From an uncultured Coriobacteriaceae bacterium (GTDB lineage: Bacteria > Actinomycetota > Coriobacteriia > Coriobacteriales > QAMH01), in assembly GCA_964435565.1 (NCBI GenBank), contig CAYSZR010000002.1, positions 102 through 64,101 of the forward strand: a stretch of 64,000 nt of DNA, written 5' to 3'. The notes below the pieces were generated by a model. It saw nothing but the letters and a program-made list of their open reading frames with translations, was not told where the DNA came from and made no database searches. How positions within the stretch are numbered: position 1 is the stretch's first letter; every line of letters begins with the position of its first letter. Positions 1,268-27,704 of this stretch are shown in pieces. Made by a program: the position numbers and the translations under genes.

Positions 1268-1301
1268 CCTCTCGTGAATCGAGTAAAGAGGAGGATTTTC
1301 A

Positions 1302-2534: not shown

Positions 2535-2617
2535 ACTTGTATACGCTTGTTTTGTTGTGAGGGCCCCGGGTAATGGCAGACGCCAGTGCTCGGGGCTCGT
2601 CTGTATGTAAATATAAA

Positions 2618-2804
2618 GCCGTGCCTTTCGTGGGATAGCGCTCGAAATGCTCTCTCAGGGTGCCGAAAGGGCGTGCCTTTCGCGATGATTTGCTTGAAGG
2701 GCACGAATTTCGAGGTGCAAAGAGAGCCCTTCGCATGGTTTTGTCCGAAATGCACGCCGTTTTTTGCTGCTAGTCGTGCCCTTCGAGGAATAGCGCTCGA
2801 AAGG
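2618..2804. repeat. Repeat- and hairpin-rich convergent intergenic spacer (CGTGCCYTTCG family)
   Basis: Two 32-nt direct repeats (2618-2649 and 2773-2804) are 27/32 identical. The core CGTGCCYTTCG occurs at 2620, 2672 and 2775, and inverted (GAAGGGCACG) at 2696. Two overlapping hairpins are possible: 2664-2670/2676-2682 and 2673-2681/2696-2704. Confidence 0.7.
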
Positions 2805-4058: not shown

Positions 4059-4208
4059 GTCTGTTCAAATCTAGAATGCAGCGTCTTATAGGATGCACTC
4101 GTGCAAGTAACTCTACAAAAAAGATTATAGACGCTTGCAGATGTTCGGTTGTCCGCTCTTTTCAGAAAACCAATATAAATATACGGATACGCAGTTGAAA
4201 TTAGGGCC

Positions 4209-10631: not shown

Positions 10632-10982
10632 GTGGGAGGACGCGTGGTTGAAGAGCATGTGGGAAAAAAACGCCGCAAAGAGGTGCGGCAGGCCATCGCC
10701 TTGAAAAAGGAGATGAACAGATCCCTTCTCTTCATTCTGATTGCGATCGTGGTCGGTGGTATCTTGGTTACGGTTCTTACCGTGCTTACGACTTCGGGCG
10801 TGATACAGATCGACAATGTCGTGACTCAGGCCATCCCGCTCGCCGTCCTTGCCCTTGTCTTCGTATTCATCGGCCCCCGCTGCTCTAAATGGCGAGACAT
10901 CCACGATCAATACAAGCTGCATCTCAAGCGCTATAACATCAGCAAAGACGACATGAACGCTCTTGAGCGCGGCGATTTATAA
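10632..10982 (+). CDS. Small membrane protein (2 TM), unknown function
   Basis: The GTG at 10632 lies 8 nt after GGGAGGA. It has a basic N-terminus followed by two hydrophobic helices. An alternative ATG is at 10713. Confidence 0.45.
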   Translation: MGGRVVEEHVGKKRRKEVRQAIALKKEMNRSLLFILIAIVVGGILVTVLTVLTTSGVIQIDNVVTQAIPLAVLALVFVFIGPRCSKWRDIHDQYKLHLKRYNISKDDMNALERGDL

Positions 10983-11098
10983 CTTTCGATTGTGGCACCA
11001 GAAAAACGCGGTTAGATTCGGTTTTAATTTCGCATGTAACGTTGCGTTGCGGTACAATTAGTCATCGTTGTTATAGGTGAAACGGGTGTAGGTTAACG

Positions 11099-12964
11099 GT
11101 GTCGAAGTATTCGAATGGCAAACATGCTATCGAACGCTTTCCTAAGGGTACGCACTCAGTTGAGCGCTATCCTCTTGGACAGCATGGCGTCGCACATCCT
11201 TGCACGTGGTACATCAATCGCGAAGTACGCAAACGTTCCGTTCCCGCAATCGCCGTTCTGCTTTCTTCAAGCATGGGCGTGGGCAGCCTGAGCGTTCCCG
11301 TGCGTGCATTCGCATCTGAATTGCAAAACGCGGCTCAGGCCGAACAAACTGTGTCTACTGGCCAGACAGCGCCTGATCCCGATCGCCTGGTTTATGAAGA
11401 GGCAACTGGCCTTTACCTTGACCCCGAAACGGGCCTGAGGTATGCGCCGGGCACATATGAACTTGTAGATTCGCAGACAAGTTCAACCACGGACGATACG
11501 GAAAAGACCTCAACTGAAACGCCAACTGCCCCGACTACGGATCCTTCTAGCTCGACTGGCAGCTCCTCTTCGTCCAGTTCGACGCAGACAAATGGGACCA
11601 GCAGCTCGACCGCAGGGCCGGACGCGTCAAAATCTTCTAGCAGCTCAAGTTCGACGACGTCTCAAGAGGCGACGCAGGCAGCCGAGTCGTCAGCAGAAAC
11701 CACTGCCAGCGAAGCAGAGACAGAAGATACTGACTCCAGCTCTGGATCGTCCTCTGATTACACGAGCGTTGCCGATGACGGTACGACGCTTTCGGCGACC
11801 ATGACAGAACTGCAAGTTGCAGCGCGCTTGCTTGATGCGGGCTGGACGCCCGAGATGATTGCCGCCGCGCTTGGAAACATGTATGCCGAATCTAGTTCGA
11901 ATGCAGCGTCGTTCTGCGATATGAGCGGGCAATTCAATTACGGCTACGAAGTAGCGGGCGGCTTGTTCCAGTGGACTGACGCGGGCTCTTCTGCAGCATC
12001 GCTGTCTTCTTCTGGTTTTACCGGGCTCACGACTTATGCAGCGCAAAAGGGAAAAAACTGGACTGACCCAACGCTTCAGACTGAATACTTCCTGCAGACA
12101 TGGCGGGCAAGCTGGGCAGAACGTCAGACATATTATGATTCCGCTTCTCCCGAATATGCGGGAGTCGATGTTTCACTTGCGTCGTTTGATGAAAGCCGCG
12201 GTAACGATTTTGATGGTGACGGGATTGTTGACGCACGCGATGACGATGTCGATGGCGATGGCGTGAAAAACGACAAGGACAAAGCTACGTTCGTGACCGA
12301 AAACGGCAAGGTTGTACGCTATAAGTCTGCCGATGCGGCAAAGGCGATTCCAACGCCAGTGAACATGCGCACGGATGCTCAGAAGCAGCAGCACGTTGCA
12401 GAGCTCACCTTTATGTTCATGGCTGGCTATGAAGGCCCGTCTGCAAGCGTCTCGCATCTGGACCGACGTGTCGCGCATGCGCAGCGCGTGTATCCGGCGA
12501 TCGTTGCCCTTGAAGAGACTCACGAACTCGGTGTTACCAACAAGAATTCAGGAATGGTCATTGCATCTGCCGAGACCATGCTTGGCGGATCTTATGTGTG
12601 GGGTGCTGAGTCTCCTGCTGAAAAGACCTTCGATTGTTCCGGTCTTACCAGATGGTGCTATTCGCTCGTGGGCGTTGATCTTGATCACTACTCAGAGACG
12701 CAATATCTGCAGGCAGATAAGGTCTACAGCATCGACGAAGCGGTTCCGGGCGATATCCTATGGAAGCCGGGGCATGTTGGAATCTACATTGGCAACGGCC
12801 AGACGGTCGAAGCCAAGGGCAAGAATTACGGAATCGTCTATGGCGAAGCATCGTCGTTCATGCAGGCGCTGCATTTCAACGAACTCGACCTTAAGCAGAT
12901 TGAACAGGTCCAGCAGAAGGCTCAAAGCGCCCGTCTCCAGCAAATCGTGAAGACCGTTTGCTAG
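11099..12964 (+). CDS. Secreted multidomain peptidoglycan hydrolase (lysozyme-like domain, Asp-rich repeats, C-terminal NlpC/P60)
   Basis: The C-terminal NlpC/P60 domain has the catalytic-Cys context FDCSGLTRWCY and GHVGIYIGNGQTVEA. There is a signal-like segment and a long S/T-rich linker. GNMYAESS...GGLFQWT resembles a phage-tail-type lysozyme. DGDGIVDARDDDVDGDGVKNDKD resembles Ca-binding type-3 repeats. Confidence 0.85.
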   Translation: MSKYSNGKHAIERFPKGTHSVERYPLGQHGVAHPCTWYINREVRKRSVPAIAVLLSSSMGVGSLSVPVRAFASELQNAAQAEQTVSTGQTAPDPDRLVYEEATGLYLDPETGLRYAPGTYELVDSQTSSTTDDTEKTSTETPTAPTTDPSSSTGSSSSSSSTQTNGTSSSTAGPDASKSSSSSSSTTSQEATQAAESSAETTASEAETEDTDSSSGSSSDYTSVADDGTTLSATMTELQVAARLLDAGWTPEMIAAALGNMYAESSSNAASFCDMSGQFNYGYEVAGGLFQWTDAGSSAASLSSSGFTGLTTYAAQKGKNWTDPTLQTEYFLQTWRASWAERQTYYDSASPEYAGVDVSLASFDESRGNDFDGDGIVDARDDDVDGDGVKNDKDKATFVTENGKVVRYKSADAAKAIPTPVNMRTDAQKQQHVAELTFMFMAGYEGPSASVSHLDRRVAHAQRVYPAIVALEETHELGVTNKNSGMVIASAETMLGGSYVWGAESPAEKTFDCSGLTRWCYSLVGVDLDHYSETQYLQADKVYSIDEAVPGDILWKPGHVGIYIGNGQTVEAKGKNYGIVYGEASSFMQALHFNELDLKQIEQVQQKAQSARLQQIVKTVC

Positions 12965-13058
12965 ACAGCGTATTTTCAAAAGGGCGAATAGGCGAAACGA
13001 CGACACTCCGTTCATGGTTCTTACCTGCGTGAACGGTATAAACAAACACCTTATTTAA

Positions 13059-13068
13059 TGCTATAATA
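13059..13068 (+). promoter_or_regulatory. Candidate extended -10 promoter (TGcTATAAT) for the pilus operon
   Basis: TGCTATAAT at 13059-13068 lies in the AT-rich spacer, about 85 nt upstream of the first pilin GTG. No convincing -35 was found. Confidence 0.4.
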
Positions 13069-13153
13069 TAAAGGTTAAAAAGGGCTTGCAAGCGGGTCTT
13101 ATGTGCCTTGCGGGTTCTGAAGCGCATGTTGAACGTGTCAGCTGGGAGAGTGC

Positions 13154-16135
13154 GTGGTGATAAGCGGGCGTAACATAGCACGCGCACATCGGGGCTTCAC
13201 GATGATGGAGCTTCTGGCTGTTGTTGCGATTCTGGCGATTGTTGCGGCCATTGCGTTTCCTGCCGGCGCCAGTTTGGCCCGCTCTCTTGATATGACACGC
13301 AGAGACGATACGGCAAAGCAGATTTATCTCTCCGCGCAGACCAGGCTTACGGCCCTGCAGTCGAGCGGTCAATTAGACAATCTTTTTACGAACATCAAGG
13401 AAACAAAAGGCCCAAATTCGATAAGCAAGCCCTCTGATTATCCCGAAGATGATTATGCGGGCCGCGCTCTATATCAAGTTGCGAAATCTGACAACGCTAC
13501 GACTCAATATCTTGTTACGTCGAACGGCGACTTAATGACTTCGACGATGTCGGGCAGCTATATTATCGAGCTCAGCCCGTCAACTGGCGAAGTATATGGC
13601 GTGTTCTATTGGGACGACGCCTCTGATGGCAGCGCGGTTACGCACAGCTATGATGAAATCATAGGCCTCGTGGGCGACCGCACTCGAAGCGCGCGCGAAA
13701 AGGCTGGAATCGGATATTACGGCGGTGGCCCTGTAAGTGCAGCCATCAATCGCGGGGGCAAGATCTCCATTGATGACACGGACATTAAGACGGTTAACAG
13801 CGAAGAGCTCTATATCAAACTCACGAACAAATCATTTGGCAAAATCGTTCAGGAAGGCAAGACCGACAAACTCACAATTAACGTTACGGTCAGCGGACCG
13901 AAGCTGGGAGTAGGAAGTTGGTCGACGGCCACGAGGACACTTTCTTTTTCGGGGGCCGATCTTGGCATGACGTCGCAAAGCGACGAAGTGGATATTATCC
14001 TCGACAGCATGATCGACGGAAAGTCCTTCTATGACATTATCGATAAGGACCGCGCTTCAGGCGAGCAGATTCAGCCAGGAGCTGATATTACATATGATGT
14101 GACGATCACGTATGATGCCGTTGATTACAAGCTCGGTGGTTCAACTGTTAATTCACTGTATGGCAGTTTGGGGGCAAGCACGGCCAATCCGGGCAGCAAT
14201 CAGATAACTGTCTATGCTTTGCGCCACCTTAACAATATTCGTACTACTAAGCTGCACGGAATCATATGGGGTTCAAATAGCTTCAGGGACATCGTTTTCC
14301 AAAACAATACGTCGGAAACGTCAGACGATTTTATTGATTTCAATGCTGCAAGCTGGGCAAATACTAGCGTCTCCATCCCTAGTCGAGTCGGGGGCGTCTC
14401 GACCGGAGCTGCACAGAATCCCCTTGCTTCTACAACAACGAAGCTCATCTCATTGGATAACCTTGCCGTCGACGGAACCGCACTCAGTTCTGGTTCGGTG
14501 GTTACGGGTAACGGTTTTCTGCTTAAAAACTTCGAGGTCACCCAGGGTATAAGCGGTGCTACAGGATTGTTCGGTTCAGTAGGGCCTACTATTACGAGCC
14601 TGTATATGACCGATCCCATTGTGAAGGGCGGGAATAATACGGGCGCGCTGGTCGGGAATTTGACGAATGGCTCCGTTTCGAATTGCGGAGTGTATCTTAC
14701 GAGCGGGGCCGATCGTGCTAATCGCACGGTTTCCGGCGGAGAAAATAGTGGCGGGCTTGTGGGTACTGTAAATGGGGGAAGCTCTGGCATCTCAAGTTCA
14801 TTTGCCGCGATTGACGTTAATGGGACAACGACGGTCGGAGGGCTTGTCGGCCTTACTTCGAATGCCATCAGGCAGAGCTATTCTTCCGGAACTGTGAAGG
14901 CGACGGATTCAGGCGCAGGAGGGCTTGCCGGTAATGTCGCGCAAGGCGTAGACGTTGCGAATTGCTATACAACCTCGAATGTGTACTGTAATAGCCAAGC
15001 TGGTGCATTTGCCGGCACTCTTGGTAGTCTTAACGATAATAATTATGCCTACGGCTATACGGTTAAGGCCGATGGGACCGTCGATTCGACGTTTGCCAAT
15101 ACCACCTATGGTTTTGCCGGCGTGTCCGGACTAACCTCTTGGACTGTATACAAGAACGCATACTACCTGCGGGATGTTGGCTATAACTCGAATGTGACGG
15201 CATCGTTGTTTAAGACCAAGTCGTTCAGTGACGTTCAGTCAGTCAAAGGGTCTGCATATGTGTCCAAACCCTATGACTCAGCGCTATCGGGCAAGGCATT
15301 CCCGTTGATCGACCCGACGGGCATTGGCAGCCACTACGGCGACTGGCCGACTGAGATTGGCGTTCAGTGGCTTAACGGGAAAAACGAGCAGGTTGAAAGC
15401 TACTCAACGCTCACAGGCGCAATTCCAGAGTTTGTTAATTCGACGAGTCATCCCGCTCCTGACTACACGGCAACAAGCACTGACGGCCGCAAATATCTTG
15501 CCTTCTGGAACGGCAGTGGGACCAGGGACGATGAAGTATCGATGGCACTTGGTATGACCAAGAATACGGTCATTACCGCAACGTATGCATCGATTGCCTA
15601 TCCAGACTTTTCAACTATGGCAAACGCGCTGGCCAGCTCATGGACTGTGACCAACGGGAGCACGTCTACAAGCCCCGTTGCTTATTTGGGCAAATCAAAC
15701 AATCAGAAACAGATCGATTCGGAAGCTCCTTGGCTTGTGGGTAATTATGCGAACGCCGCCACGTCTATGCGGTCTTATCTTATATATCAGGGTTACTATA
15801 GTTCCGACTATGCGCAGCAGATTAGAAGTAACCCGACAGATGCAGCCGCCAACCACCCGGAGTACATTCCTTATTCGTTCCGCGTGGTGAAAGCTTCGGG
15901 CTCCAAGACGGATACCAAGGAGGAAGGTCGGTACCTTGTCTTTTTGGGCGAAAAGATTACGGACGGTATGGCGTCTTGCAATGTGATCAAATTTGACGTT
16001 GGCCGCTCGAATAATGGCAAGCCTGCTTTTCAGCGAGGGACTATAGACATTGGAACAACGACGCAGGTAGGGAAGACATACTCTCTGTATCTGGAGAACA
16101 CATTCACACCAACGAGCGCCTGGTTTACTTTGTAG
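13154..16135 (+). CDS. Giant modular type IV pilin-like protein (class III signal peptide plus GLUG-repeat module)
   Basis: The N-terminus MVISGRNIARAHRG/FTMMELLAVVAILAIVAAIAFP is a prepilin cleavage/methylation motif with Glu at +5. Residues about 350-625 carry GLUG-type repeats (TGLFG, GALVG, GGLVG x2, GGLAG, GAFAG). Length is 993 aa. Confidence 0.85.
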   Translation: MVISGRNIARAHRGFTMMELLAVVAILAIVAAIAFPAGASLARSLDMTRRDDTAKQIYLSAQTRLTALQSSGQLDNLFTNIKETKGPNSISKPSDYPEDDYAGRALYQVAKSDNATTQYLVTSNGDLMTSTMSGSYIIELSPSTGEVYGVFYWDDASDGSAVTHSYDEIIGLVGDRTRSAREKAGIGYYGGGPVSAAINRGGKISIDDTDIKTVNSEELYIKLTNKSFGKIVQEGKTDKLTINVTVSGPKLGVGSWSTATRTLSFSGADLGMTSQSDEVDIILDSMIDGKSFYDIIDKDRASGEQIQPGADITYDVTITYDAVDYKLGGSTVNSLYGSLGASTANPGSNQITVYALRHLNNIRTTKLHGIIWGSNSFRDIVFQNNTSETSDDFIDFNAASWANTSVSIPSRVGGVSTGAAQNPLASTTTKLISLDNLAVDGTALSSGSVVTGNGFLLKNFEVTQGISGATGLFGSVGPTITSLYMTDPIVKGGNNTGALVGNLTNGSVSNCGVYLTSGADRANRTVSGGENSGGLVGTVNGGSSGISSSFAAIDVNGTTTVGGLVGLTSNAIRQSYSSGTVKATDSGAGGLAGNVAQGVDVANCYTTSNVYCNSQAGAFAGTLGSLNDNNYAYGYTVKADGTVDSTFANTTYGFAGVSGLTSWTVYKNAYYLRDVGYNSNVTASLFKTKSFSDVQSVKGSAYVSKPYDSALSGKAFPLIDPTGIGSHYGDWPTEIGVQWLNGKNEQVESYSTLTGAIPEFVNSTSHPAPDYTATSTDGRKYLAFWNGSGTRDDEVSMALGMTKNTVITATYASIAYPDFSTMANALASSWTVTNGSTSTSPVAYLGKSNNQKQIDSEAPWLVGNYANAATSMRSYLIYQGYYSSDYAQQIRSNPTDAAANHPEYIPYSFRVVKASGSKTDTKEEGRYLVFLGEKITDGMASCNVIKFDVGRSNNGKPAFQRGTIDIGTTTQVGKTYSLYLENTFTPTSAWFTL

Positions 16136-16229
16136 CCGGTCTTATGAGGGAGAGATAATAGCCGACACACGACATATCGAAGAAAGAATCAAGAGCGAAC
16201 GCGGTGCTTCGATAATCATCGCGCTGGTT

Positions 16230-17252
16230 TTGCTGCTTATCTGCGCCATGGTCGCTGCTGTGGTGGTAAGCCTCGCCGCCTCAAACGCAAGCAGGAGCCC
16301 CCAGCACGTGAAAGAGGAGCAGGTGTATTTCACAGCAACTTCTGCCCTCAAGCTTGTTCAGGACTCTTTTTCTTCGACCGACAGCTGTTATCTTGATATG
16401 CCTACGGCTGGCACGTCCGTTTCTTCAGCGTTTACATACGGCAAGTTTTCTTCTACTAGTGACATCGGCAAATGGGCATACAAATGGACGACAACCATTT
16501 ATCAAGATTATGTTGCTGGAACGATTGGCTCGTATAGTGAGTCAAGCAGTTCCGAAGATTTTACCATCCATGCGGATAATTCTCTGATGAGTGGCAGCGA
16601 TGTGACGGTTCGTCTGACTATGAGCAAGGACTATACGATAAGCGCTTCCATTGTAAATGCTGATGAGAACTACAACTATGATTTGCAGGTTGAAATCCCC
16701 CTGTCTTCGAGCCAGTCGAAAGTGAATGTCGACTCAAGCGGCAAGCCTACGTATTCGTATGTGGTTTCTTGGGGAGCGGCTGTGAGTGGATATCCGACGA
16801 CGAAGGGCGCGCCTTATTACCAGCCCCAGGCGGCAGGTATTGCATCGGCAAATAGCCTTACTTCGGCAAGTGACCAAAATACGAAAAGCCTGCAGCAGCT
16901 ATATAAAAGTGCGAACGACAGTGCATATCCCAATATTACAGAGGAAGAAGCTGCCCTTAATTCCATTAGCGCTGGGCACGCAAGCGACTACGTATGGAAG
17001 CCGATTATTGCTACGGACGGGACGGTCATCTTAGCCGCCTGTAAAGCGAGCGGTCAGGGCGTTGGCGATGCTACGGGGACGATAATGATCTATGTCGATG
17101 GACGTTACTATAGCTGGAAAAAGCTTGTTTTTTTTGTCTATTATGATGATGTCACGACAATAGATTCTTCTGGATTTGACAAGGACCAAATAACCAATCT
17201 CTTCTTGTGGGGGCTACTTTGGAAGTGGGAGGAAGTGCAATGGAAAAACTGA
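16230..17252 (+). CDS. PilX/GspK-like pilus-associated protein (start codon uncertain)
   Basis: The canonical TTG start is at 16230. The same frame is open from 16071 and encodes ...SERGASIIIALVLLLICAMVAAVVV, a PilX_N-like anchor, upstream of any ATG/GTG/TTG. A GAGGGAGAG SD lies at 16146-16154. Confidence 0.6.
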   Translation: MLLICAMVAAVVVSLAASNASRSPQHVKEEQVYFTATSALKLVQDSFSSTDSCYLDMPTAGTSVSSAFTYGKFSSTSDIGKWAYKWTTTIYQDYVAGTIGSYSESSSSEDFTIHADNSLMSGSDVTVRLTMSKDYTISASIVNADENYNYDLQVEIPLSSSQSKVNVDSSGKPTYSYVVSWGAAVSGYPTTKGAPYYQPQAAGIASANSLTSASDQNTKSLQQLYKSANDSAYPNITEEEAALNSISAGHASDYVWKPIIATDGTVILAACKASGQGVGDATGTIMIYVDGRYYSWKKLVFFVYYDDVTTIDSSGFDKDQITNLFLWGLLWKWEEVQWKN

Positions 17253-17536
17253 CTCGACGTATTGCGAAGAACAACAGGGGCGAGACGATTGTCGAGACGC
17301 TTGCGGGTATTGTCGTATGCACCCTTGCGGTGTTGATCTTGGTAACGGCAACGGTTACGGCCGCAAGAATCAATAAGCAAGCCGAAGATCGAGATGCCCA
17401 GTTGAATGTCGAGCAGCTCCAAGCAGAAAAGAACGTTAATCCCCTGGCTACGGAAGGAACGGTTACATTTGGTGGCAGTTCTTTGACGGTTACCTATTAT
17501 GGAGGGGAGAGCATGACGTCCTACGTCATGAAGTAA
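17240..17536 (+). CDS. Minor pilin-like protein (atypical Glu at +1)
   Basis: MEKLTRRIAKNNRG/ETIVETLAGIVVCTLAVLILV has the G, Glu+5 and hydrophobic helix. The ATG at 17240 follows GGGAGGA and overlaps the previous gene by 13 nt. Confidence 0.7.
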   Translation: MEKLTRRIAKNNRGETIVETLAGIVVCTLAVLILVTATVTAARINKQAEDRDAQLNVEQLQAEKNVNPLATEGTVTFGGSSLTVTYYGGESMTSYVMK

Positions 17537-17539
17537 AGC

Positions 17540-18118
17540 ATGAGGCCTCTGCCGGTGATACAGAGCATCGAAAGGATTCGTTGCAGTGCTAAGCTCGGTT
17601 CACGCAGAACCGGCGGCTTCACATTGGTGGAGATGCTCGCTGCACTTGTTATCTTGATGCTTCTTACCGGGATAGTCACCATGGGCGTCAATCTGGGAAT
17701 GAAGACGTATCGCGAAGCAACGTTCGCATCGGAAAGCCAAATTCTGGCGGGTACCATTAACAGCGCTCTCTCAGATCCTTTCCGCAATATGACGTATACA
17801 GAAGACGCGTTGGGCAATAGGACCTATTCGATCGTGTATCGTGATGACGCGACAGGCGGGGCGGTTACTTCCCCTAGCCTGAAGGCTATTGATGGCCAGA
17901 TATATATACAGGGAAGTAATACGTCCGGCAATGGGATCGCACTTCTTAACAAGAAAGCTTATTCTGACTGTAAAGTTACCAGCATAAAGCTCGATGATTG
18001 TGATGGCGTGATAGTCTCGGGCACGTTTTCCATCCAAAGCACTGTCGATTCGAGTTTGAAGAAAGAGGATATAGCATTTTCCTTCGTGCCCATCAGTCCG
18101 ATTCATAAACCAAACTAA
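17540..18118 (+). CDS. Minor type IV pilin
   Basis: ...SRRTGG/FTLVEMLAALVILMLLTGIV is a canonical prepilin N-terminal cleavage/methylation motif. Confidence 0.8.
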   Translation: MRPLPVIQSIERIRCSAKLGSRRTGGFTLVEMLAALVILMLLTGIVTMGVNLGMKTYREATFASESQILAGTINSALSDPFRNMTYTEDALGNRTYSIVYRDDATGGAVTSPSLKAIDGQIYIQGSNTSGNGIALLNKKAYSDCKVTSIKLDDCDGVIVSGTFSIQSTVDSSLKKEDIAFSFVPISPIHKPN

Positions 18119-18145
18119 GATTAGGCTTAGAGGAGCAAACACACT

Positions 18146-19834
18146 ATGAAATACACCAGGCTCGGAGATCTTCTCGTCGATTCAGGACTCATCGACAACG
18201 ATCAGCTGAAAGACGCCCTAGCTGCTCAGAAGAAAACCAGGCAGCGTCTGGGTGAGACGCTCATTTCTGAGGGCATCATCACTGAGCGTCAGCTCATCAA
18301 TGCGCTCACCATGCAGTTGGGTATCGATTTCATCGACTTGACCACTGCCGATATTCTTCCAGAAATGACGCAGCTGGTCTCTAAGAACCTGGCAAAGAAG
18401 TATTCGGTCGTTCCCGTGAAAACCAAAGGCGACGAGCTGTATCTTGCTATGGCCGACCCGCTGAACTTCATTGCAACTGAAGAGATAAAGTCCGCTTCCA
18501 AAAAGCGCATTGTTCCCATGATCGCCACGCAATCCGCTATCGATCATGCCATCAGCGCCTTGTACGGCACCGAAGGCGCCAAGCGAGCTATTCGCGAGAT
18601 GCAGCAGGAAAACGAACGCGAGACAGCCTACACGGTTGGCGCGACTGCACAGATCGACGAAGCAGGGCAGGCGGCCCCTTCCATCCGCTTGGTCGACAGC
18701 ATCATCGAACGTGGTATTTCCGATCGCGCCAGCGATATCCACATCGAGCCGCAGGAAGGCGAAATGCTGGTACGCATGCGTGTCGACGGCATGCTGCATA
18801 ACGTGCTGACCATCCCCAAGGAATTGCAACAATCGGTAACCTCGCGCATCAAGATCATGTGCAATATGGATGTCACCGAACGTCGTGTTCCGCAGGACGG
18901 CCGCGCCATCGTCAGTGTTCGCATGAAGGAAGCAGACCTGCGCGCATCCACATTGCCCACGGTCCACGGTGAGAAGATCGTGCTTCGCATCCTTGATCGC
19001 AGCAACCAGCAGAACACAGCTGAAGAGCTGGGCTTTTATGGTACGAATCTGGAACGTTACAACAGGTTGCTCACGAATCGGCAGGGCGTTATCTTGCTGG
19101 TTGGCCCCACGGGTTCTGGTAAATCGTCCACCATGTTCACGATGATCCAGAAGCTCAATACCGAAGAGGTCAATATCGTCACGCTGGAAGACCCCGTCGA
19201 ATACAACATCGAAGGCGTCAACCAGGTGCAGGTAAACGAAAAGACCGGTACGTCGTTTGCCGGCGGCCTTCGATCCATCCTGCGTCAGGACCCCGACATC
19301 ATCGGCGTCGGCGAAATCCGCGATGCCGAAACAGCGGATATCGCCATGCGCGCTGCCGTCACGGGCCATTTGGTGGTCTCTACCGTACATACGAGCGACG
19401 CTGTATCCACGCTCGATCGTTTGGATGACATCGGCGTCGAGCCGTACATGATGGCAAGCGCTCTGAAAGGCGTCATCAGCCAGCGTTTGGTGCGCCGCAT
19501 CTGCCCGCATTGCCGCGAAGCTTATATGCCGACCCCCGAAGAGCTCGAGGGCCTGGGAATGGATCCCGCAGCCTTGGATGTGGAGTTCTACCGCGGCGCC
19601 GGTTGTTCTGAATGCTTCGGGAGTGGCTATAAGGGCCGCACCGTTGTGGCGGAAGTGCTGATGATCGACAAGGCCATGCGTCAGGCTATTCATGAGCAGC
19701 GCTCGCGCGAAGACCTGATGGTCGCCGTGCGCGCATCGGGTTTCCAGCCAATTATCCAGAATTGCCGCGAGCTGGTGCTGAATGGCATCACCACCGCGGA
19801 AGAGGCGTTCCGTACCATCTTCACGACCGACTAG
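18146..19834 (+). CDS. pilB: Type IV pilus assembly ATPase PilB (GspE family) with an MshEN-type N-terminal domain
   Basis: Walker A GPTGSGKS, Asp/His boxes, and the tetracysteine motif CPHC...CSEC. The N-terminal domain has two RLGxx(L/V/I)... motifs. Confidence 0.95.
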   Translation: MKYTRLGDLLVDSGLIDNDQLKDALAAQKKTRQRLGETLISEGIITERQLINALTMQLGIDFIDLTTADILPEMTQLVSKNLAKKYSVVPVKTKGDELYLAMADPLNFIATEEIKSASKKRIVPMIATQSAIDHAISALYGTEGAKRAIREMQQENERETAYTVGATAQIDEAGQAAPSIRLVDSIIERGISDRASDIHIEPQEGEMLVRMRVDGMLHNVLTIPKELQQSVTSRIKIMCNMDVTERRVPQDGRAIVSVRMKEADLRASTLPTVHGEKIVLRILDRSNQQNTAEELGFYGTNLERYNRLLTNRQGVILLVGPTGSGKSSTMFTMIQKLNTEEVNIVTLEDPVEYNIEGVNQVQVNEKTGTSFAGGLRSILRQDPDIIGVGEIRDAETADIAMRAAVTGHLVVSTVHTSDAVSTLDRLDDIGVEPYMMASALKGVISQRLVRRICPHCREAYMPTPEELEGLGMDPAALDVEFYRGAGCSECFGSGYKGRTVVAEVLMIDKAMRQAIHEQRSREDLMVAVRASGFQPIIQNCRELVLNGITTAEEAFRTIFTTD

Positions 19835-19861
19835 CGCATGGGCAAGAAGGGGGCAAACCAT

Positions 19862-20914
19862 ATGACAGCACTCGACAGCATCATATCCCACGCCAATGAA
19901 AGGCGAGCTTCTGATATACATATCGCCGCTGGGGTTCCCGTTCGCTTTCGTATCGACGGACGTTTAGTCGATGCAGATGATCGCGTCTTGGAAGCTGAAG
20001 ATTGCGAGCAGCTGGGCAAGATCGCGGCGGGTGACGATTTCGAGAAGATCGCCAGAATCGGTGAATTGGACATGGCAGACACCTATGCCGGCTCCATTCG
20101 TTGCCGCTTGAACCTCTATCGCAGTCAAGGCAATATCTGCATCGCCATCCGCTTGCTCTCCAACGTCATTCCCGACCTGGATACGCTTGGCTTGCCGCCC
20201 ATCATGTTGGATTTTCCCACCTATAACAAGGGTATCGTCATTGTCACGGGTGAAACGGGGTCGGGCAAATCGACCACGCTGGCATCGATATTGAACGAAG
20301 TCAATAAAACGCGTTCTGACCATATCATCACCTTGGAAGACCCCATCGAATATATCTATACGCCGCAGAAATGCAGCATCGACCAGCGTGAGATCGGCCA
20401 TGATACCCACAGCTATGCCGACGGCCTGCGCGCCATCTTGCGCGAAGACCCCGACGTCATTCTGATCGGCGAGATGCGCGACCTCGATACGATTGAAACC
20501 GCGTTGACCGCGGCCGAAACGGGCCACTTGGTCTTTGGAACCTTGCATACGCAAAGCGCCGCCGATTCCATCGATCGTTTGGTCGACGTGTTTCCCGAAG
20601 GCCGCCAGCGTCAGATTCGCCTGCAGCTTTCCATGACGCTCGTGGCCGTGGTGTCGCAGCAGCTGCTGGTGCGCCGCGAAGGCACGGGGCGTGCAGTGGC
20701 ATGCGAAGTCATGATGGTGAACCCCGCCATCCGCAACCTCATTCGCGAGGGAAAGACCCCGCAGATCGAGAACACTTTGGCAACTACGGCAGAGCTGGGC
20801 AGCATCACCATGGACAACATGCTCATTCGTATGGTTCGCAATCGCACCATTTCTCCGCAGACTGCTGTCGAGGCGGCGCACGACCCCGAATATGTGAAGC
20901 GTAACGCCCGATAG
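19862..20914 (+). CDS. pilT: Pilus retraction ATPase PilT
   Basis: About 350 aa with Walker A GETGSGKST and a PilT-type AIRNLIREGK motif. The ATG at 19862 lies about 9 nt after AAGGGGG; an alternative ATG is at 19838. Confidence 0.95.
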   Translation: MTALDSIISHANERRASDIHIAAGVPVRFRIDGRLVDADDRVLEAEDCEQLGKIAAGDDFEKIARIGELDMADTYAGSIRCRLNLYRSQGNICIAIRLLSNVIPDLDTLGLPPIMLDFPTYNKGIVIVTGETGSGKSTTLASILNEVNKTRSDHIITLEDPIEYIYTPQKCSIDQREIGHDTHSYADGLRAILREDPDVILIGEMRDLDTIETALTAAETGHLVFGTLHTQSAADSIDRLVDVFPEGRQRQIRLQLSMTLVAVVSQQLLVRREGTGRAVACEVMMVNPAIRNLIREGKTPQIENTLATTAELGSITMDNMLIRMVRNRTISPQTAVEAAHDPEYVKRNAR

Positions 20915-20941
20915 CGACGGCGCGTCAGGAAGGCACGGCAT

Positions 20942-22147
20942 ATGAAGACGTTCAATTACAAAGCCAGGACTGAAACAGGTTCCACCATCGACGGCGTTGC
21001 CGAGGCGAATACGCGCGAAGAGGCGGTATTGAACCTGAAAGACGCTGGCCTTATTGTCGAGTCCATTGCCGAATCCGGCGGCGAACATGACATCGACTTG
21101 CGCTTGGGTGGTCGCAAAGCCAAGGAAAAATCCCTGGCCATCATGTGCAATCAGTTTGCCATCATCTTGACGGCGGGCATGCCCATCGTTCGCACATTGC
21201 AGCTAGTGGCCAATCAGACGGAAGACAAGACGCTGAAAAGCATCTTGGGCGATGTGGCTGACGACGTTGCTGCAGGTTATAGTCTGGCCGATAGTTTTGC
21301 CAAGCATGGCAAGGGTTTGCCGGTCACCTTTGTGGAAACGGTGCGCGCGGGCGAGGCCTCTGGCAACCTGGACGTGGTGTTTCGGCGCCTGAGCGATTTT
21401 TACGAAAAGTCCAGCAAGACGAAATCCAAAGTGAAATCTGCGATGATCTATCCCGCTTTTGTCGTGTGCATTGCTGTTGTGGTTATCGCCATTATCATGA
21501 TTTTCGCCGTTCCTACGTTTACTTCAACGTTTGCAACAATGGGTGTGCAGCTGCCTTGGATCACCCAGTTTATGATCGATGGATCGGCCTTCCTGACACA
21601 TAACATCCTCTTCATCATTGGCATCATCATCGTGCTGGTCATTGCAGTAAAGGTGGCCAAGAAAAATGATGATTTCCGTTTGAAATGGAGCAGCATCGGT
21701 GTGCGCGTTCCCGTCATCGGCCGCATCAACCTTATGAATGCTGCCAGTCAATATTCGGGTACCATGGGCGTCATGATGGAAGCGGGCCTTTCGGTTATCA
21801 GCGCCGTGGGCGTTACCGCGCGGTCTATGAGCAACTATTATATGGGGCATGAACTGGCTGCCACGCAGACTGACCTGGAATCGGGCAAGCCGCTGGCCTC
21901 GTGTCTGGCAAAAGCCGATATCTTTCCCGAGTTGGTTACCGAAATGACCGGCGTGGGCGAACAGACGGGCTCGCTGGAACATACCTTGACCGTGCTTTCT
22001 GAATATTACGATAATGAGGTGGAGACAGCCAGTTCGCGCGCGCTGTCTATTTTAGAACCGCTCATCATTGTCATTCTGGCGGTTGTTGTGTGTGGCATTT
22101 TATTGGCGGTATATCTGCCCATGTTCAGCCTATATGGAAATATGTAA
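20942..22147 (+). CDS. pilC: Type IV pilus platform protein PilC (GspF family)
   Basis: 401 aa with two GspF repeats and 3 TM segments, typical of T2SSF. Confidence 0.95.
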   Translation: MKTFNYKARTETGSTIDGVAEANTREEAVLNLKDAGLIVESIAESGGEHDIDLRLGGRKAKEKSLAIMCNQFAIILTAGMPIVRTLQLVANQTEDKTLKSILGDVADDVAAGYSLADSFAKHGKGLPVTFVETVRAGEASGNLDVVFRRLSDFYEKSSKTKSKVKSAMIYPAFVVCIAVVVIAIIMIFAVPTFTSTFATMGVQLPWITQFMIDGSAFLTHNILFIIGIIIVLVIAVKVAKKNDDFRLKWSSIGVRVPVIGRINLMNAASQYSGTMGVMMEAGLSVISAVGVTARSMSNYYMGHELAATQTDLESGKPLASCLAKADIFPELVTEMTGVGEQTGSLEHTLTVLSEYYDNEVETASSRALSILEPLIIVILAVVVCGILLAVYLPMFSLYGNM

Positions 22148-22195
22148 GGCTGGGTTACGGCGTTTGTGAGGGCGAAACGGAGCAATTATCAGGAT

Positions 22196-22225
22196 ATTGT
22201 ACAGTCCGTGACGTTGAACTATAAT
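22196..22225 (+). promoter_or_regulatory. Candidate sigma70-type promoter for pilA (TTGTAC-18-TATAAT)
   Basis: TTGTAC at 22196-22201 and TATAAT at 22220-22225, about 95 nt upstream of the pilA ATG. Confidence 0.4.
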
Positions 22226-22321
22226 GTAGGTTGCATAAATGGATGAGGGCTTCCTTCTCAGACGGGTTTCAACCCGGCCCGAAACCTAGAGGGACCGCCT
22301 AAGAAGACAAAGGAGGCTCAT

Positions 22322-22750
22322 ATGAAAGAAATGATCCAAGCTCGTAAAGAGCAGCTTCAAGAGCGCGGCGTCAAGGGTTTTACCCTGATGGAAATGCTGA
22401 TTGTCGTCGCTATCATTGCCGTGTTGGTCGCTATTGCAATTCCTATCTTTACGTCGCAGCTTAATAATTCCAAGGTGCAGGCAGACGCTGCAAATATTCG
22501 CTCTGGCTATGCCCAGGTTTCGGCAACTGTTCTGACGGCGTCACCGGCGCCCGCTACTGGTGCAACGTATGGTCTGAATACTGATGGCACTATTACTACT
22601 GGCTCAACGGGGGACTTTAAGGCTCAAGGAAAGCCAAGTGCTGCAGAATCTATTGGTGGATCATCGATTACGTGGGATGTTGGTCAAACGCCGACTTATA
22701 CTTGGGATGGCTCAAAGATAGTTATTACGATGGCTGCTGTGACTCCCTAG
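22322..22750 (+). CDS. pilA: Major type IV pilin PilA
   Basis: MKEMIQARKEQLQERGVKG/FTLMEMLIVVAIIAVLVAIAIPIF. Length is 142 aa, with a strong RBS (AAGGAGG), its own promoter and a terminator. Confidence 0.85.
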   Translation: MKEMIQARKEQLQERGVKGFTLMEMLIVVAIIAVLVAIAIPIFTSQLNNSKVQADAANIRSGYAQVSATVLTASPAPATGATYGLNTDGTITTGSTGDFKAQGKPSAAESIGGSSITWDVGQTPTYTWDGSKIVITMAAVTP

Positions 22751-22788
22751 TCGAGCTTGCATGAACCGTGGGTTGCGGTTCTAAAAAA

Positions 22789-22821
22789 CAGGGTCCGGAG
22801 AAATCCGGGCCCTGTTTTATT
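22789..22821 (+). terminator. Rho-independent terminator after pilA
   Basis: CAGGGTCCGG-agaaat-CCGGGCCCTG forms a 10-bp stem with one G-T pair, followed by TTTTATT. Confidence 0.7.
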
Positions 22822-22891
22822 CTCGGTGCCCGCCTTCATTTCGATGCGATGGTATGCTTATAGCATCTTCAACTGAAAGGCGTCCACGCTC

Positions 22892-23767
22892 ATGTTGCTC
22901 TATGCCACACCTGCCATTACCGCATACGTGCTTGTGTTGACTGCCGTTGTTGGTTTGGTCATGGGTAGCTTTCTTAACTGTTGGGCATGGCGCATCACGC
23001 ATCATGAATCCGTTATGCACGGTCGCTCGCATTGCATCACGTGCAATCACATTCTTGCCGTACGTGATCTTGTTCCCGTGTTCAGTTGGCTTTCAACCAA
23101 GGGCACCTGCCGCTATTGCGGGCAGAAAGTGTCCGCTCGCTATCCGCTGGCGGAGCTTTTTTGCGCTGTGGTGTTCGTGTCCATCGTCATGCGTTACAAC
23201 ATCAGTCTGGAAGCGGCGCAGCTGCTGTGTTTCGCATCCATCTTGCTGGTGCTCTCTCTTACAGACTTAGACGATTACATCATTCCCAATGGCTGCATTA
23301 TCGCAGCCATTATCGTGCGTGTGCTCTACATCGTGGCGTCAGGGCTGCTTGTTGGAACGGATATGCTTACGCTGGCACTCGATTCCCTGTTAGGTGGCGT
23401 GGCGGTGTTCGTTCCGTTGCTGTTAGTGGTGTTGGTCGCTGATAAGTTGCTGGGTCGCGACAGCATGGGTGGCGGCGACTTGAAGCTCTTCTTTGTGGCA
23501 GGTCTCTATTTTGGCTGGCAGCAATGCCTGTTCCTGGTTATTGTGGCCTGCGTTATCGGCATCGTGTTGGCTCTTATCGTTCCAGCTGAATCAGCGGAAA
23601 ACTTGCAAGATTCCCAGGGTGCTTCCCAGCCTGATGAAGCCGATTCCTCTTCGCTTTCCGCAAAAGCGCAGCGTCTCATTCCGTTCGGTCCCTCCATTGC
23701 CCTTGCATGTTGGATTACCTGCTTGTGCGGCGGCCCGCTTGTCTCGTGGTATTTGGGACTATTCTGA
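22892..23767 (+). CDS. pilD: Prepilin peptidase/N-methyltransferase PilD (A24 family)
   Basis: The N-terminal Zn-like motif CITC...CRYC is present, with multiple TM segments and GGGDLKLF containing the catalytic Asp. Confidence 0.9.
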   Translation: MLLYATPAITAYVLVLTAVVGLVMGSFLNCWAWRITHHESVMHGRSHCITCNHILAVRDLVPVFSWLSTKGTCRYCGQKVSARYPLAELFCAVVFVSIVMRYNISLEAAQLLCFASILLVLSLTDLDDYIIPNGCIIAAIIVRVLYIVASGLLVGTDMLTLALDSLLGGVAVFVPLLLVVLVADKLLGRDSMGGGDLKLFFVAGLYFGWQQCLFLVIVACVIGIVLALIVPAESAENLQDSQGASQPDEADSSSLSAKAQRLIPFGPSIALACWITCLCGGPLVSWYLGLF

Positions 23768-23870
23768 TTCTAGGAACTATTGCGCCTTAACCTGCGAATT
23801 TGTATGAAAAGCGCTACAATGAATAATTGATGAGCAATGGTGCAGGCAACACACAGGGGAAAGGAAGCCC

Positions 23871-24878
23871 ATGTCGTCGTTTGTGGGAATTGACATCGGC
23901 AACAATAACTGCAAAATCGCAGTTCGCGAAGGTGGTTCCATTCGTTTGGTGTCACGTCGCATGCCTGAGAATATGGTGAAGTCGGGCGAAGTGACGGCAC
24001 CTGAAACCATGGCTACCTTTCTGAAAGAAGTACGCCAGACGGAAAATATTCACGATCGCGACTGCGTGCTGGTATTGGCAGAATCGCAAACGTACTTTCG
24101 CCATGTCACACTGCCGGCTATGACCGTGGGCGAGCTTGAACTGAACCTCCCATACGAATTTCGCGACTTCATTGCTGGCGACCCCAGCGAATATGTATAT
24201 GACTATTCCGTTGATGAAATGGTCAACGATGAAACGGGCAAACCGCAACGGCTCGAGCTCTACGCCGCCGCTGCTGAAAAGGCGATGGTCGATAGATATT
24301 CTGGCATGTTGCGCAAAGCAGGATTTCGGCTGAAGGCGGTTGTGCCGGCTCCTATGGCATATTCCCGCTTACTGCGTGCGCATATCGACGCAAACCCCGA
24401 CGATGAGAATAAGGACATCGTCTTGGTGGACATTGGCCATGCCGACGCAACCGTTATGCTGTATCGTGGGGCGCATTATGAAGCCATGAAGACCGTCGAT
24501 TTTGGGTGCGATGAATTCGACGACACCATTGCGGTTTTGAAGAACATCGACCCCTATACGGCAAGCAGCTACAAATATTCCAATTTCGAAGGCGTGCTCG
24601 ACTCGCCTGAATGTCGGTCCATTTGCGATCGGTTTGCGCTAGAAGTGAACAAAGTCGTCAATTTCTATAACTTTAATAATCCCGATAAGGACATCGAGCA
24701 GATGTACTTCTTAGGTGGTGGCGCGCAGATTCCGCAGTTGACGAACGTAATTGCCGAGGCGGTGTCTATCCCGGCTCAAAGTGTGGAAGCTCTGCTACCG
24801 GCAGATGTGCAAGATCTTCTGAACGGCCCCGTATGCACGCTGGCGGTTGCCGGCATGCTTGAAGGCGAGGCGATGTAG
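23871..24878 (+). CDS. pilM: Pilus assembly protein PilM (actin-like ATPase fold)
   Basis: FVGIDIGNNNCKIAV N-terminal phosphate-1-like motif. Its size and its position ahead of the PilN/PilO-like genes fit PilM. Confidence 0.85.
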   Translation: MSSFVGIDIGNNNCKIAVREGGSIRLVSRRMPENMVKSGEVTAPETMATFLKEVRQTENIHDRDCVLVLAESQTYFRHVTLPAMTVGELELNLPYEFRDFIAGDPSEYVYDYSVDEMVNDETGKPQRLELYAAAAEKAMVDRYSGMLRKAGFRLKAVVPAPMAYSRLLRAHIDANPDDENKDIVLVDIGHADATVMLYRGAHYEAMKTVDFGCDEFDDTIAVLKNIDPYTASSYKYSNFEGVLDSPECRSICDRFALEVNKVVNFYNFNNPDKDIEQMYFLGGGAQIPQLTNVIAEAVSIPAQSVEALLPADVQDLLNGPVCTLAVAGMLEGEAM

Positions 24879-24879
24879 C

Positions 24880-25476
24880 ATGGCGCTGGACTGGAACAAA
24901 TCGCTCAGCTTTGGCGGTTCTTCGAAGAAGGCGGCCGAATACCCCACGAAGACCATCATCAATCTGAATACGGTTACCTCCACAGCAGTTGACCCACGCA
25001 AAGCCATCATCCTTGGCGTGATCTTGGCCGTTTTGGTGGGCTGCTTCGTCAAATTTGGCGTTATGGATTTCTATGGGCAGGTCTCTGCCAAGCAAGCCGA
25101 GCTTTCGCGCCAGCAGGCAACGCTTGCCCAGGTCGAAAGCAAGCTCGCGAATTACGATTCTATTAAGGCAGAATACGAAAGCTACGGGTCGTATCTTTCA
25201 GGCAGCAGTGCTGCGGCGGTTGATGCCATTACGGTGCTCAATCTGATAGACCAGCAGATCATGCCTGTTGCGAAGGTGACCTCGGTCACGCTGAAGGATA
25301 ATTCGCTCTCGCTTTCTTTGACGAACGCGAGCTTGAGTACCATCGGCAATCTGGTCAACACGCTGTCTGCTCAGTCCATCGTTTCCAATGTGTCCGTTTC
25401 GACCGCCGCCACCAACGCGACGGCAGCTCAGGATGTGACCGCCACCATGGTCATCACCCTGAAGCAGGCAAGCTAG
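24880..25476 (+). CDS. pilN: PilN-like bitopic pilus alignment protein
   Basis: The ATG at 24880 lies 1 nt after the pilM stop. It has a short cytoplasmic N-terminus, a single TM helix, a coiled coil and a C-terminal beta-rich domain. Confidence 0.65.
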   Translation: MALDWNKSLSFGGSSKKAAEYPTKTIINLNTVTSTAVDPRKAIILGVILAVLVGCFVKFGVMDFYGQVSAKQAELSRQQATLAQVESKLANYDSIKAEYESYGSYLSGSSAAAVDAITVLNLIDQQIMPVAKVTSVTLKDNSLSLSLTNASLSTIGNLVNTLSAQSIVSNVSVSTAATNATAAQDVTATMVITLKQAS

Positions 25477-25488
25477 GAGGGGGCGGCA

Positions 25489-26082
25489 ATGCTGACGTAT
25501 ACGTTTTCCAAACGCGAGAAAGTGATGCTGGCTGCGCTGGCCTGTATCTTGGTGTTGGTTGCCTGGTACATGCTTGTCTTTCAGAACGTGAACAACCAAG
25601 TGTCTTCGCTTAATAGCCAGATAGCAACGGTACAGGATCAAACCACGGTTGATTCGGCCAAACTCGCTCAGATGAATACGATGCAGAAGGCCATCGATGA
25701 CAGCAAGGCCAAGGGCTTGAAGGCCACGGCTCTTCCCACGTATGACAACGTGCAGGCGCTGATGGCGTCTTTGAATACGACGCTTGCTTCCACCAACAAT
25801 TACTCGCTTGCGTTCGATAATCTGGACCGTAGCGAATCGAAGCTGGTGAAGCGTGGTGTGACCATGACGTTTGGTTGCAATAGCTATGCCGATGCAAAGA
25901 CCATCATCACTGCCATCAAGCAGGGTACCTATCCATGCACGATCGACTCGGTCAGCATGACCGACAACACGGTGAAGACGACGAGCTCCTATTCGAACGC
26001 GGGCAGCGGATCGTCCAGCGCTGCGTCGAGCTCGAACTATGGCGTGTCGATGCACGTGACGTATTTCGAGAAGGCTTCGTAG
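25489..26082 (+). CDS. pilO: PilO-like bitopic pilus alignment protein
   Basis: The N-terminal TM (MLAALACILVLVAWYMLVF) is followed by a coiled coil. Gene order is pilM-pilN-pilO. Confidence 0.65.
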   Translation: MLTYTFSKREKVMLAALACILVLVAWYMLVFQNVNNQVSSLNSQIATVQDQTTVDSAKLAQMNTMQKAIDDSKAKGLKATALPTYDNVQALMASLNTTLASTNNYSLAFDNLDRSESKLVKRGVTMTFGCNSYADAKTIITAIKQGTYPCTIDSVSMTDNTVKTTSSYSNAGSGSSSAASSSNYGVSMHVTYFEKAS

Positions 26083-26167
26083 CTTTCCGTTGCAACCTGT
26101 CCGTTAACGCAAAGAAGCGTTTTGTCTTTTACCGAATACCTTTCGCCCGTCGGGCAGAGGTGGATAA

Positions 26168-27601: not shown

Positions 27602-27704
27602 TCCTGCTGCCGTTTTGCCGCGAATGCCGTATAATGCCTTCACGTTTGCGTCAGTAACTATTGCACTGCAGTAGGGCACTCGTCTTGCCCTTGTTGGAGG
27701 TATT

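Follow-up and report, generated by a model that had tools for sequence, protein, structure and literature searches.

A large modular pilin with a degenerate GLUG-type beta-helix, encoded first in a conserved type IV pilus operon of Coriobacteriia and Clostridia, is a candidate tip adhesin

Modular pilins are the current explanation of functional diversity in simple type IV pili (T4P), and few of them have been studied (Streptococcus sanguinis PilB and PilC, CofB, and ComZ). A survey by Raynaud et al. 2021 listed more than 1,200 such proteins in 264 architectures, the 'most extreme case' being 860 residues long (PMC8179133). One of these architectures, IPR012902-IPR011493, is represented by 6 proteins in Dataset S1 of that survey and is mentioned in its Discussion as a predicted M26 peptidase architecture (PMC8179133). 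Here, we describe a 993-amino-acid (aa) modular prepilin of the same domain combination that is encoded by an uncultured Coriobacteriaceae bacterium, at 13154..16135 on the + strand of a 64,000-nucleotide (nt) stretch of contig CAYSZR010000002.1 (positions 102 to 64,101; this whole stretch is hereafter called the window), as the first gene of a pilus operon. By the published definition (PMC8179133) the protein is a modular pilin, joining the IPR012902 motif to a GLUG-type beta-helix that is common to IgA1 proteases and many non-pilin surface proteins. Together with its relatives, the protein belongs to the IPR012902-IPR011493 set or extends it; that set was read as a predicted M26 peptidase there, whereas the module corresponds here to a non-catalytic beta-helix, and it numbered 6 proteins there as against at least 542 clusters here (E ≤ 1e-10). 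The combination of a pilin with GLUG repeats is thus not new as an architecture, and the view of an earlier sequence-only reading of this DNA, that a GLUG module on a pilin had not been described, had to be given up, as the survey already contained it and databases already label relatives. We take IPR011493 to be the GLUG entry that integrates PF07581; the survey itself gives the number and 'M26' only. What is added here is that the module is a non-catalytic helix, that the family is two orders of magnitude above the InterPro count, that its members hold a fixed first position in a conserved operon, and that these pilins extend far beyond 860 residues; the interest lies in the family more than in this member of its smallest class.

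The best-studied parallel is provided by S. sanguinis PilB and PilC, which likewise consist of a class III signal peptide, a small pilin module and C-terminal grafts (PMC8179133, PMC9934059), which are likewise encoded in a monoderm pil locus with PilD, an extension ATPase and PilT, and which are part of the minor-pilin tip set, as is proposed below for the present protein. However, the S. sanguinis modules are a von Willebrand factor A (vWA) domain in PilB and a concanavalin-like lectin in PilC, whereas the protein described here carries a beta-sandwich, a GLUG beta-helix and C-terminal domains; both streptococcal proteins are much smaller, while the present family reaches 4,920 aa; and S. 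sanguinis replaced PilHIJK by PilABC, whereas a four-gene set with a subunit devoid of Glu5 is kept in the present operon, which is known from sequence alone. Large minor pilins with extra beta-rich domains are also represented by ComZ of Thermus thermophilus (a beta-solenoid) and by CofB/TcpB (a beta-repeat and a beta-sandwich in CofB), all of which are thought to be located at the tip and to act in ligand binding or initiation (PMC8179133). CofB and TcpB belong to type IVb pili of diderms and trimerize, the ComZ solenoid binds DNA, and no sequence or fold relationship of the 993-aa protein to ComZ, CofB or TcpB was detected in the searches made. The ComZ solenoid is, in addition, inserted in the pilin sheet and not appended to it. 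PilY1/PilC of diderm type IVa pili, a large tip adhesin, parallels the function that we propose below for the giant pilin, but PilY1/PilC is a non-pilin riding on the complex, whereas the putative adhesin here is itself a pilin. Finally, the N-terminal domain (NTD; residues ~781-1070) of IgA1 metalloproteases from Streptococcus pneumoniae and Gemella haemolysans (6xjb, 7uvl; PMC7695701, PMC9637739) contains a homologous GLUG right-handed beta-helix. In the protease, a large enzyme with an LPXTG anchor, this helix is non-catalytic, touches the IgA1 Fab and acts as a gate to the active site (PMC7695701), while here it is attached to a pilin and accompanied by no protease domains.

The N-terminus of the 993-aa protein reads (V)VISGRNIARAHRG/FTMMELLAVVAILAIVAAIAFPAGA, where the slash marks the predicted PilD cut between G14 and F15, and carries Glu at +5; the signal site is thus AHRG/FTMMELLAVVAILAIVAAIAFP. 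The leader (13154..13195, +) and the residues that follow matched both Pfam N_methyl (PF07963; 26.9 bits vs a cut-off of 21.2) and TIGR02532 (29.7 bits vs 16.3). Hence, the class III prepilin N-terminus with Glu+5 that the sequence-only reading had recognized was borne out above both curated cut-offs, including in the PF07963 search that it had proposed. The GFTMMEL motif showed no variation across nine aligned close homologues, and IMG lists a near-identical copy of the protein under the label 'prepilin-type N-terminal cleavage/methylation domain-containing protein'. We therefore regard the N-terminus, as judged from these profiles, as a bona fide class III signal peptide, and the signal peptide together with alpha1 clearly belongs to a pilin. 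An AlphaFold2 (AF2) model of the full 993 aa, built on 24 homologues, had a mean predicted local distance difference test score (pLDDT) of 73, while a separate model of residues 1-205 reached a pLDDT of 83.4 and a predicted template modeling score of 0.77 with the same topology. In these models, the putative pilin module (residues 15-~195; 13196..13738, +) begins with a hydrophobic alpha1N containing Glu+5 and a 55-residue alpha1 (residues 17-71), followed up to about residue 195 by small helices and by strands at 107-110, 135-141, 146-153 and 187-190; an IGYYGG motif is conserved within it. The long alpha1 and small sheet expected from the earlier suggestion of a pilin fold in the N-terminal ~190 aa were accordingly predicted, which makes such a fold topologically plausible; the other side of the suggestion is weighed below.

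The most confident part of the full model (pLDDT 84-96) is a right-handed beta-helix of short strands at residues 449-632 (14498..15049, +), which was indicated by AF2, by the family profile and by Foldseek. It contains six repeats of ~28 residues with GxLxG-type motifs at residues 470, 497, 533, 562, 589 and 617; a degenerate seventh motif follows at 654, and successive motifs are spaced by 27, 36, 29, 27, 28 and 37 residues. The six repeats of the sequence-only reading are therefore real, while the extent that it gave them (residues ~350-625) was too wide on the N-terminal side, as they span residues 470-621 (nt 14561-15016). The strict pattern G[GA][LFI]xG occurs five times, compared with 0.35 expected, and 1 of 5000 shuffles reached five. 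At the level of the family, the assignment is firm: 18 of the 24 aligned homologues pass the Pfam Glug profile (best E 1.7e-33), three of them (P0006, P0009 and P0011) with 8-17 Glug stretches each, and the glycines of the repeats do not vary in the alignment. A nine-member family profile matched the S. pneumoniae IgA1 protease (6xjb, 7jgj, 6xja; E 5.5e-10) over positions 177-327 of the chain; as the construct begins at residue 665, this stretch falls within the NTD beta-helix (781-1070). Foldseek, run with the full model against the PDB, likewise gave IgA1 proteases as its top matches (7uvl_P and 6xjb; E 2.6e-3 and 3.8e-3; probability 1.00 and 0.97). In a phmmer search of PDB sequences with the full protein, the matches were confined to pilin alpha1, the IgA1 protease appearing with the family profile only. 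With three independent lines (homologues, family profile and fold) in agreement, we conclude that the repeat module is of the GLUG type at family level, that the 993-aa protein carries a contracted, degenerate version of it, and that this beta-helix is homologous to the non-catalytic N-terminal beta-helix of the streptococcal IgA1 protease.

The description 'pilin plus appended beta-helix' proved too simple, since the protein comprises a pilin module, a beta-sandwich, a linker, the beta-helix, a small beta domain and a C-terminal domain. The beta-sandwich (residues ~205-353; 13766..14212, +; pLDDT 75-92) is conserved family-wide with VNxEELY, LDSM and PG motifs; it gave weak FN3-, immunoglobulin- and carbohydrate-binding-module-like matches in Foldseek, while residues 196-450 had no Pfam or NCBIfam match even at E ≤ 10. 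It is followed by a conserved RHLNNxR segment and a linker to the beta-helix (residues 354-448; 14213..14497, +), in which RHLNNIR is found at 357-363, with R357, H358, N360 and N361 invariant in the alignment of homologues, and in which residues 400-445 are modeled as floppy loops of low pLDDT. After the beta-helix, a segment at 15050..15352 (+) ends, according to the alignments, in HYGDWP (727-732), a family-wide motif whose G729 and W731 are nearly invariant. The small beta domain (residues 734-815; 15353..15598, +), with AF2 strands at 734-740, 746-753, 771-774, 780-791 and 805-815, resembles by eye a Listeria-Bacteroides (Flg_new) repeat, which Pfam did not detect there. The C-terminal domain (residues 816-993; 15599..16135, + strand, including the stop codon), delimited by AF2 and alignments, closes with a beta unit at 927-986 that carries a YDVGRA...G..YQ.GTI motif common to close homologues; the C-terminal 363 aa had no Pfam or NCBIfam match even at E ≤ 10.

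The gene heads a complete T4P operon of four pilin-like genes followed by pilB-pilT-pilC-pilA-pilD-pilMNO, all on the + strand and with a prepilin peptidase among them, in agreement with the earlier placement of the modular prepilin at the front of the pilus operon. Gene 2 (16155..17252, +) is pilin-like (KSERG/ASIIIALVLL), lacks Glu5, gave a weak GspK N-terminal match (E 5e-4) and is a putative cap subunit of the GspK/PilK type. Gene 3 (17237..17536, +) encodes a pilin-like protein of ~100 aa (NNRG/ETIVETLAG), and gene 4 (17540..18118, +) a 192-aa minor pilin (RRTGG/FTLVEML; N_methyl 27.4 bits). Pfam identified the extension ATPase PilB (T2SSE, 420 bits, and MshEN), the retraction ATPase PilT (T2SSE, 172 bits) and the platform protein PilC (T2SSF, 193 bits) at 18146..22147 (+). 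A 142-aa major-pilin candidate, pilA, with the signal motif GVKG/FTLMEML, is encoded at 22322..22750 (+), and pilD (an A24 prepilin peptidase; A24_N_bact 98 bits, Peptidase_A24 53.8 bits), pilM (PilM_2, 70 bits) and two final pilN/pilO-like genes with weak GspM-like matches follow at 22892..26082 (+). No secretin is found among the genes of this operon, which is consistent with a monoderm. The arrangement recalls GspH-I-J-K/PilH-I-J-K, where four pilin-like genes likewise stand in a row with one lacking Glu5, and the sizes of these core minor pilins roughly match (K with gene 2, I with gene 3, H or J with gene 4), but no gene here reaches any H, I, J or K cut-off, the matches being at the level of alpha1. 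A GspH-, I- or J-like class for the pilin module of the 993-aa protein was rejected on the same grounds (gspH 17.2 bits vs a cut-off of 80), and N-terminal fragments of relatives searched with the H, I, J and K family models also gave alpha1-level matches far below the cut-offs; nor was the label 'GspH family', given in an NCBI record to a 265-aa fragment, reproduced.

The family to which the 993-aa protein belongs is large and conserved, and this protein is a small member of it. A word-indexed search returned about 25 full-length homologues of 970-1,640 aa, which, where named, are prepilin-type or type II secretion proteins from metagenome-assembled genomes (MAGs) of Eggerthellaceae and Atopobiaceae; other relatives are labeled 'GLUG motif-containing protein' in databases. 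When only the N-terminal 450 aa (pilin module and beta-sandwich) were compared exhaustively, by HMMER, with representatives of clusters at 50% identity, 1,569 representatives matched at E ≤ 1e-3; of these, 542 stayed at a limit of E ≤ 1e-10 and 48 at one of E ≤ 1e-30. Most matches covered query residues ~10-365. The proteins are mostly 1,000-2,500 aa long and reach 3,670 and 4,920 aa (overall range 970-4,920), and those that are named come from Atopobiaceae, Clostridiales and an anaerobic digester. Among 20 sampled giants, Glug was detected in 15, N_methyl in 14 and Flg_new in 2, and several giant relatives contain two or three GLUG modules, each closing with HYGDWP. While a contig search with the 993-aa protein as single query found nothing, a contig profile search seeded by a 9-sequence alignment found true relatives, all of them in MAGs and at ≤39% identity; the GTDB genomes with true relatives are MAGs of Coriobacteriia, Eggerthellaceae, Atopobiaceae, Lachnospiraceae and Clostridiales. 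One further relative, with 24% identity over residues 6-612, lies on a 5-kb contig (CAVCTP010000095.1) of a MAG labeled Tannerellaceae (Bacteroidota), and this contig is probably mis-binned.

Four loci with relatives were inspected, from an Eggerthellaceae MAG (L001), a second MAG (L002), the genome encoding the 4,920-aa relative (L003) and a Clostridiales MAG (L004). In the window and in all four loci, thus in five operons of gut-type Gram-positive bacteria, the giant pilin is the first gene of the operon, and in each locus it is followed by genes for proteins of ~200-345, ~100-118 and ~170-262 aa and then by pilB-pilT-pilC; pilA-pilD-pilMNO come after pilC in three of the four (L001, L003 and L004). 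Gene 2 is orthologous to its counterparts in L001-L004 and lacks Glu5 in every locus, and gene 3 shares 35-42% identity with its orthologues in L001, L002 and L004. Between the window and these loci, the four pilin genes are all orthologous and 30-42% identical, compared with 62-82% for PilB, 60-86% for PilT, 46-77% for PilC and 45-86% for the machinery proteins overall; the pilin set was therefore inherited with the machine and evolves much faster than it. The PilB of the window is 72-75% identical to proteins from Eggerthellaceae, Coriobacteriaceae and Atopobiaceae MAGs, in keeping with an origin, most likely, from an uncultured bacterium of the class Coriobacteriia. Two peculiarities of individual loci were also noted: in L002 (19868-23468 and beyond), the gene next to pilC does not code for the small major pilin but, running off the edge of the locus, for 4,617 aa in which Flg_new_2 and MBG_2 repeats are numerous, a second giant surface protein inside a T4P operon, and the 4,920-aa member in L003 (10001-24763) begins with KMNKA/YTLVEMM, where Ala (-1) and Tyr (+1) take the places of Gly and Phe, which, if processed, would be an unusual prepilin cleavage site for so large a substrate.

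These findings are the basis of our hypothesis that the 993-aa protein is probably a PilD-processed minor pilin of a tip or priming complex and exposes its beta-helix as an adhesive stalk, a reading in which the role as tip adhesin is a reasonable inference. According to a review, core minor pilins form a tip complex capped by a subunit without Glu5, and filaments assemble tip-first (PMC10191384), a scheme that the four-gene set with its Glu5-less gene 2 fits. According to this model, the prepilin would insert in the membrane via its hydrophobic alpha1N, and PilD would cut after Gly14 and methylate Phe15. The giant pilin and the products of genes 2-4 would then form the priming complex on which PilB polymerizes PilA, with the gene 2 product as the cap and the GLUG pilin, in which Glu5 is present, beneath it. 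In this way, the rod-like GLUG helix would be carried through the wall, together with the beta-sandwich and the C-terminal domains, at or just below the pilus tip, where the displayed modules may act as an adhesive stalk, while retraction by PilT would pull on the bound target. How far the stalk reaches would be set by the number of GLUG coils, from about six repeats here to whole extra modules in relatives of 2,000-4,900 aa. The fast divergence of the pilin set relative to the motor is as would be expected of an exposed ligand-binding protein.

Several observations weigh against this hypothesis. First, many profile matches to solved pilins were obtained, yet they cover alpha1 only (roughly the first 60 positions), and no pilin was among the Foldseek matches of the confident N-terminal model (best E 0.099); Foldseek performs poorly where a single long helix makes up most of a protein. 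Beyond alpha1, the pilin fold suggested by the predicted topology is thus plausible but unproven. Second, the Pfam Glug profile (PF07581), the other search proposed with the sequence-only reading, gave 13.2 bits (E 0.13, residues 557-581) with the 993-aa protein, below the gathering cut-off of 20.5, so that this check failed for the protein itself although most homologues passed it, and domain-based censuses would miss the protein because of this sub-threshold score. Third, the C-terminal region is poorly modeled at residues 819-921 (pLDDT below 50), and the C-terminal 261 aa searched alone retrieved one 189-aa fragment, in a search that also missed known full-length homologues, the word-index step being limiting. 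Fourth, the GLUG pilin keeps Glu5 and so is not the cap, and, if it occupied an H-like position, it would project its module sideways below the tip. Moreover, a module of ~100 kDa, let alone ~500 kDa, would have to pass across the Gram-positive wall, and the literature searched contained no study of GLUG pilins or of Coriobacteriia type IV pili.

Among the alternatives, we considered that the protein is a core priming subunit whose narrow, rigid beta-helix serves mainly assembly or wall crossing, as a spear or spacer that clears or holds a passage for the nascent pilus in the thick peptidoglycan or in setting pilus number, with modules that bind nothing specific. Such a role would suit the rod shape of the beta-helix, which the paper on IgA1 protease calls a common structural motif of bacterial proteins, and the place at the head of the four-pilin set that the gene holds in all operons examined, which is typical of assembly-essential minor pilins (PMC10191384). 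However, the length range of 970-4,920 aa and the fast divergence fit an exposed, selected surface better than a tool of fixed geometry, and adhesins typically carry extra domains of the kind seen here (beta-sandwich, Flg_new-like and C-terminal); we thus find this role unlikely as the sole one, while noting that assembly and adhesion are not mutually exclusive. It is also rather improbable that the protein is processed by PilD without being borne on the pilus, as a surface protein remaining at the membrane or wall, its signal peptide serving only for membrane anchoring and export as in archaeal non-filament substrates of prepilin peptidase. The lack of a pilin fold match beyond alpha1 and the apparent difficulty of fitting members of 2,000-4,900 aa on a filament speak for such a protein, but the co-location and co-evolution with three pilin-like genes upstream of pilB-pilT-pilC are strict in distant lineages, Glu5 and the full alpha1, that is, the filament-assembly interface, are kept although a mere anchor would not need them, and the model, at a pLDDT of 83, shows a small sheet after a long alpha1. 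The remaining alternative, left open by the sequence-only reading, namely a pilus-delivered M26-type peptidase or other hydrolase, draws on the occurrence of GLUG motifs in M26 IgA1 metalloproteases, on the M26 label given to IPR012902-IPR011493 and on Peptidase_M26_N matches in 2 of the 24 homologues and 1 of the 20 giant relatives, but is essentially excluded by the sequence, as no HExxH or HxxEH zinc motif occurs anywhere in the 993 aa, neither Peptidase_M26_N nor M26_C matches the protein at E ≤ 1, no other catalytic Pfam or NCBIfam domain was matched, and the shared region corresponds to the NTD beta-helix of the IgA1 protease, whose catalytic residues (H1604, E1605, H1608 and E1628) belong to its middle and C-terminal domains (PMC7695701). 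The module is therefore one for binding or a stalk, not an enzyme, and a pilin that bears GLUG repeats need not be an M26 peptidase, which corrects a database-driven misreading.

The locus thus points to a large, conserved and uncharacterized family in Coriobacteriia and Clostridia, many of which are gut commensals. If displayed at the tip, as the preferred hypothesis holds, its members would chiefly determine the binding targets of these pili and would rank among the largest known pilins, and they would raise the mechanical question of how a module of 100-500 kDa passes through a Gram-positive wall on a retractile filament. More tentatively, the GLUG pilins might be, rather than an occasional accessory, a core subunit of a distinct, widespread T4P lineage of gut and anaerobic-digester Coriobacteriia and Clostridia, in which a helix of variable length, from proteins of ~1,000-4,900 aa that far exceed any pilin treated in the literature searched, forms a 'fibre on the fibre' at the tip, about as thin as the pilus and able to be threaded through the wall, and binds host, mucus, immunoglobulin or other cells under diversifying selection; we consider this extension possible but doubtful.

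As to the start of the prepilin gene, a GGGAGA Shine-Dalgarno sequence lies 4-7 nt ahead of the adjacent GTG codons at 13154 and 13157. A promoter-like site at 13039..13067 (+), 87 nt upstream of the start codon, consists of TAAACA, a 17-nt spacer and a TG-extended TATAAT; with 10 of 12 promoter matches it is the best + strand site within 10900-28000, but its assignment as promoter of this gene is suggestive only, because promoter-like sites are, in total, no more numerous there than shuffled sequence would lead one to expect. The start of gene 2 is odd. Its signal (IKSERG/ASIIIALVLL) precedes the first canonical in-frame start codon, TTG at 16230 (region 16133-16310), and between the preceding stop codon and 16230 there is no ATG, GTG or TTG, the available codons being ATA (16155, 16158), ATC and CTG after a Shine-Dalgarno sequence, GAGGGAGAG. 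The orthologues in L001-L004 have a Met start 15-45 residues before the G/AS site, and in a near-identical Logan contig the gene is called shorter still (314 aa); the reason is a start codon outside the canonical set or else an error in the assembly. A 'faint' PilJ_C annotation of gene 2 on a near-identical contig was not reproduced by direct hmmscan.

The gene immediately upstream of the pilus operon, at 11099-12964 (+), encodes 621 aa in which a Phage_lysozyme2 and an NlpC/P60 domain make up a double peptidoglycan hydrolase, which could help bulky pilus tips to cross the wall; a near-identical contig (L060) keeps this gene, but none was seen ahead of the operon in L001-L004. Directly after the pilN/pilO-like genes, a 477-aa GGDEF diguanylate cyclase is encoded at 26168-27601 (+), which may place piliation under the control of cyclic di-GMP; the gene is not conserved at that position in the other loci extending that far. 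Farther away, on the - strand (49904-55045), a 1,713-aa open reading frame encodes a TED_2 thioester domain, a SpaA-type domain and eight T-Q ester-bond domains (709 bits) and is, as judged from these domain matches, a surface protein of the Gram-positive covalent-adhesin type that is unrelated to the pilus operon.

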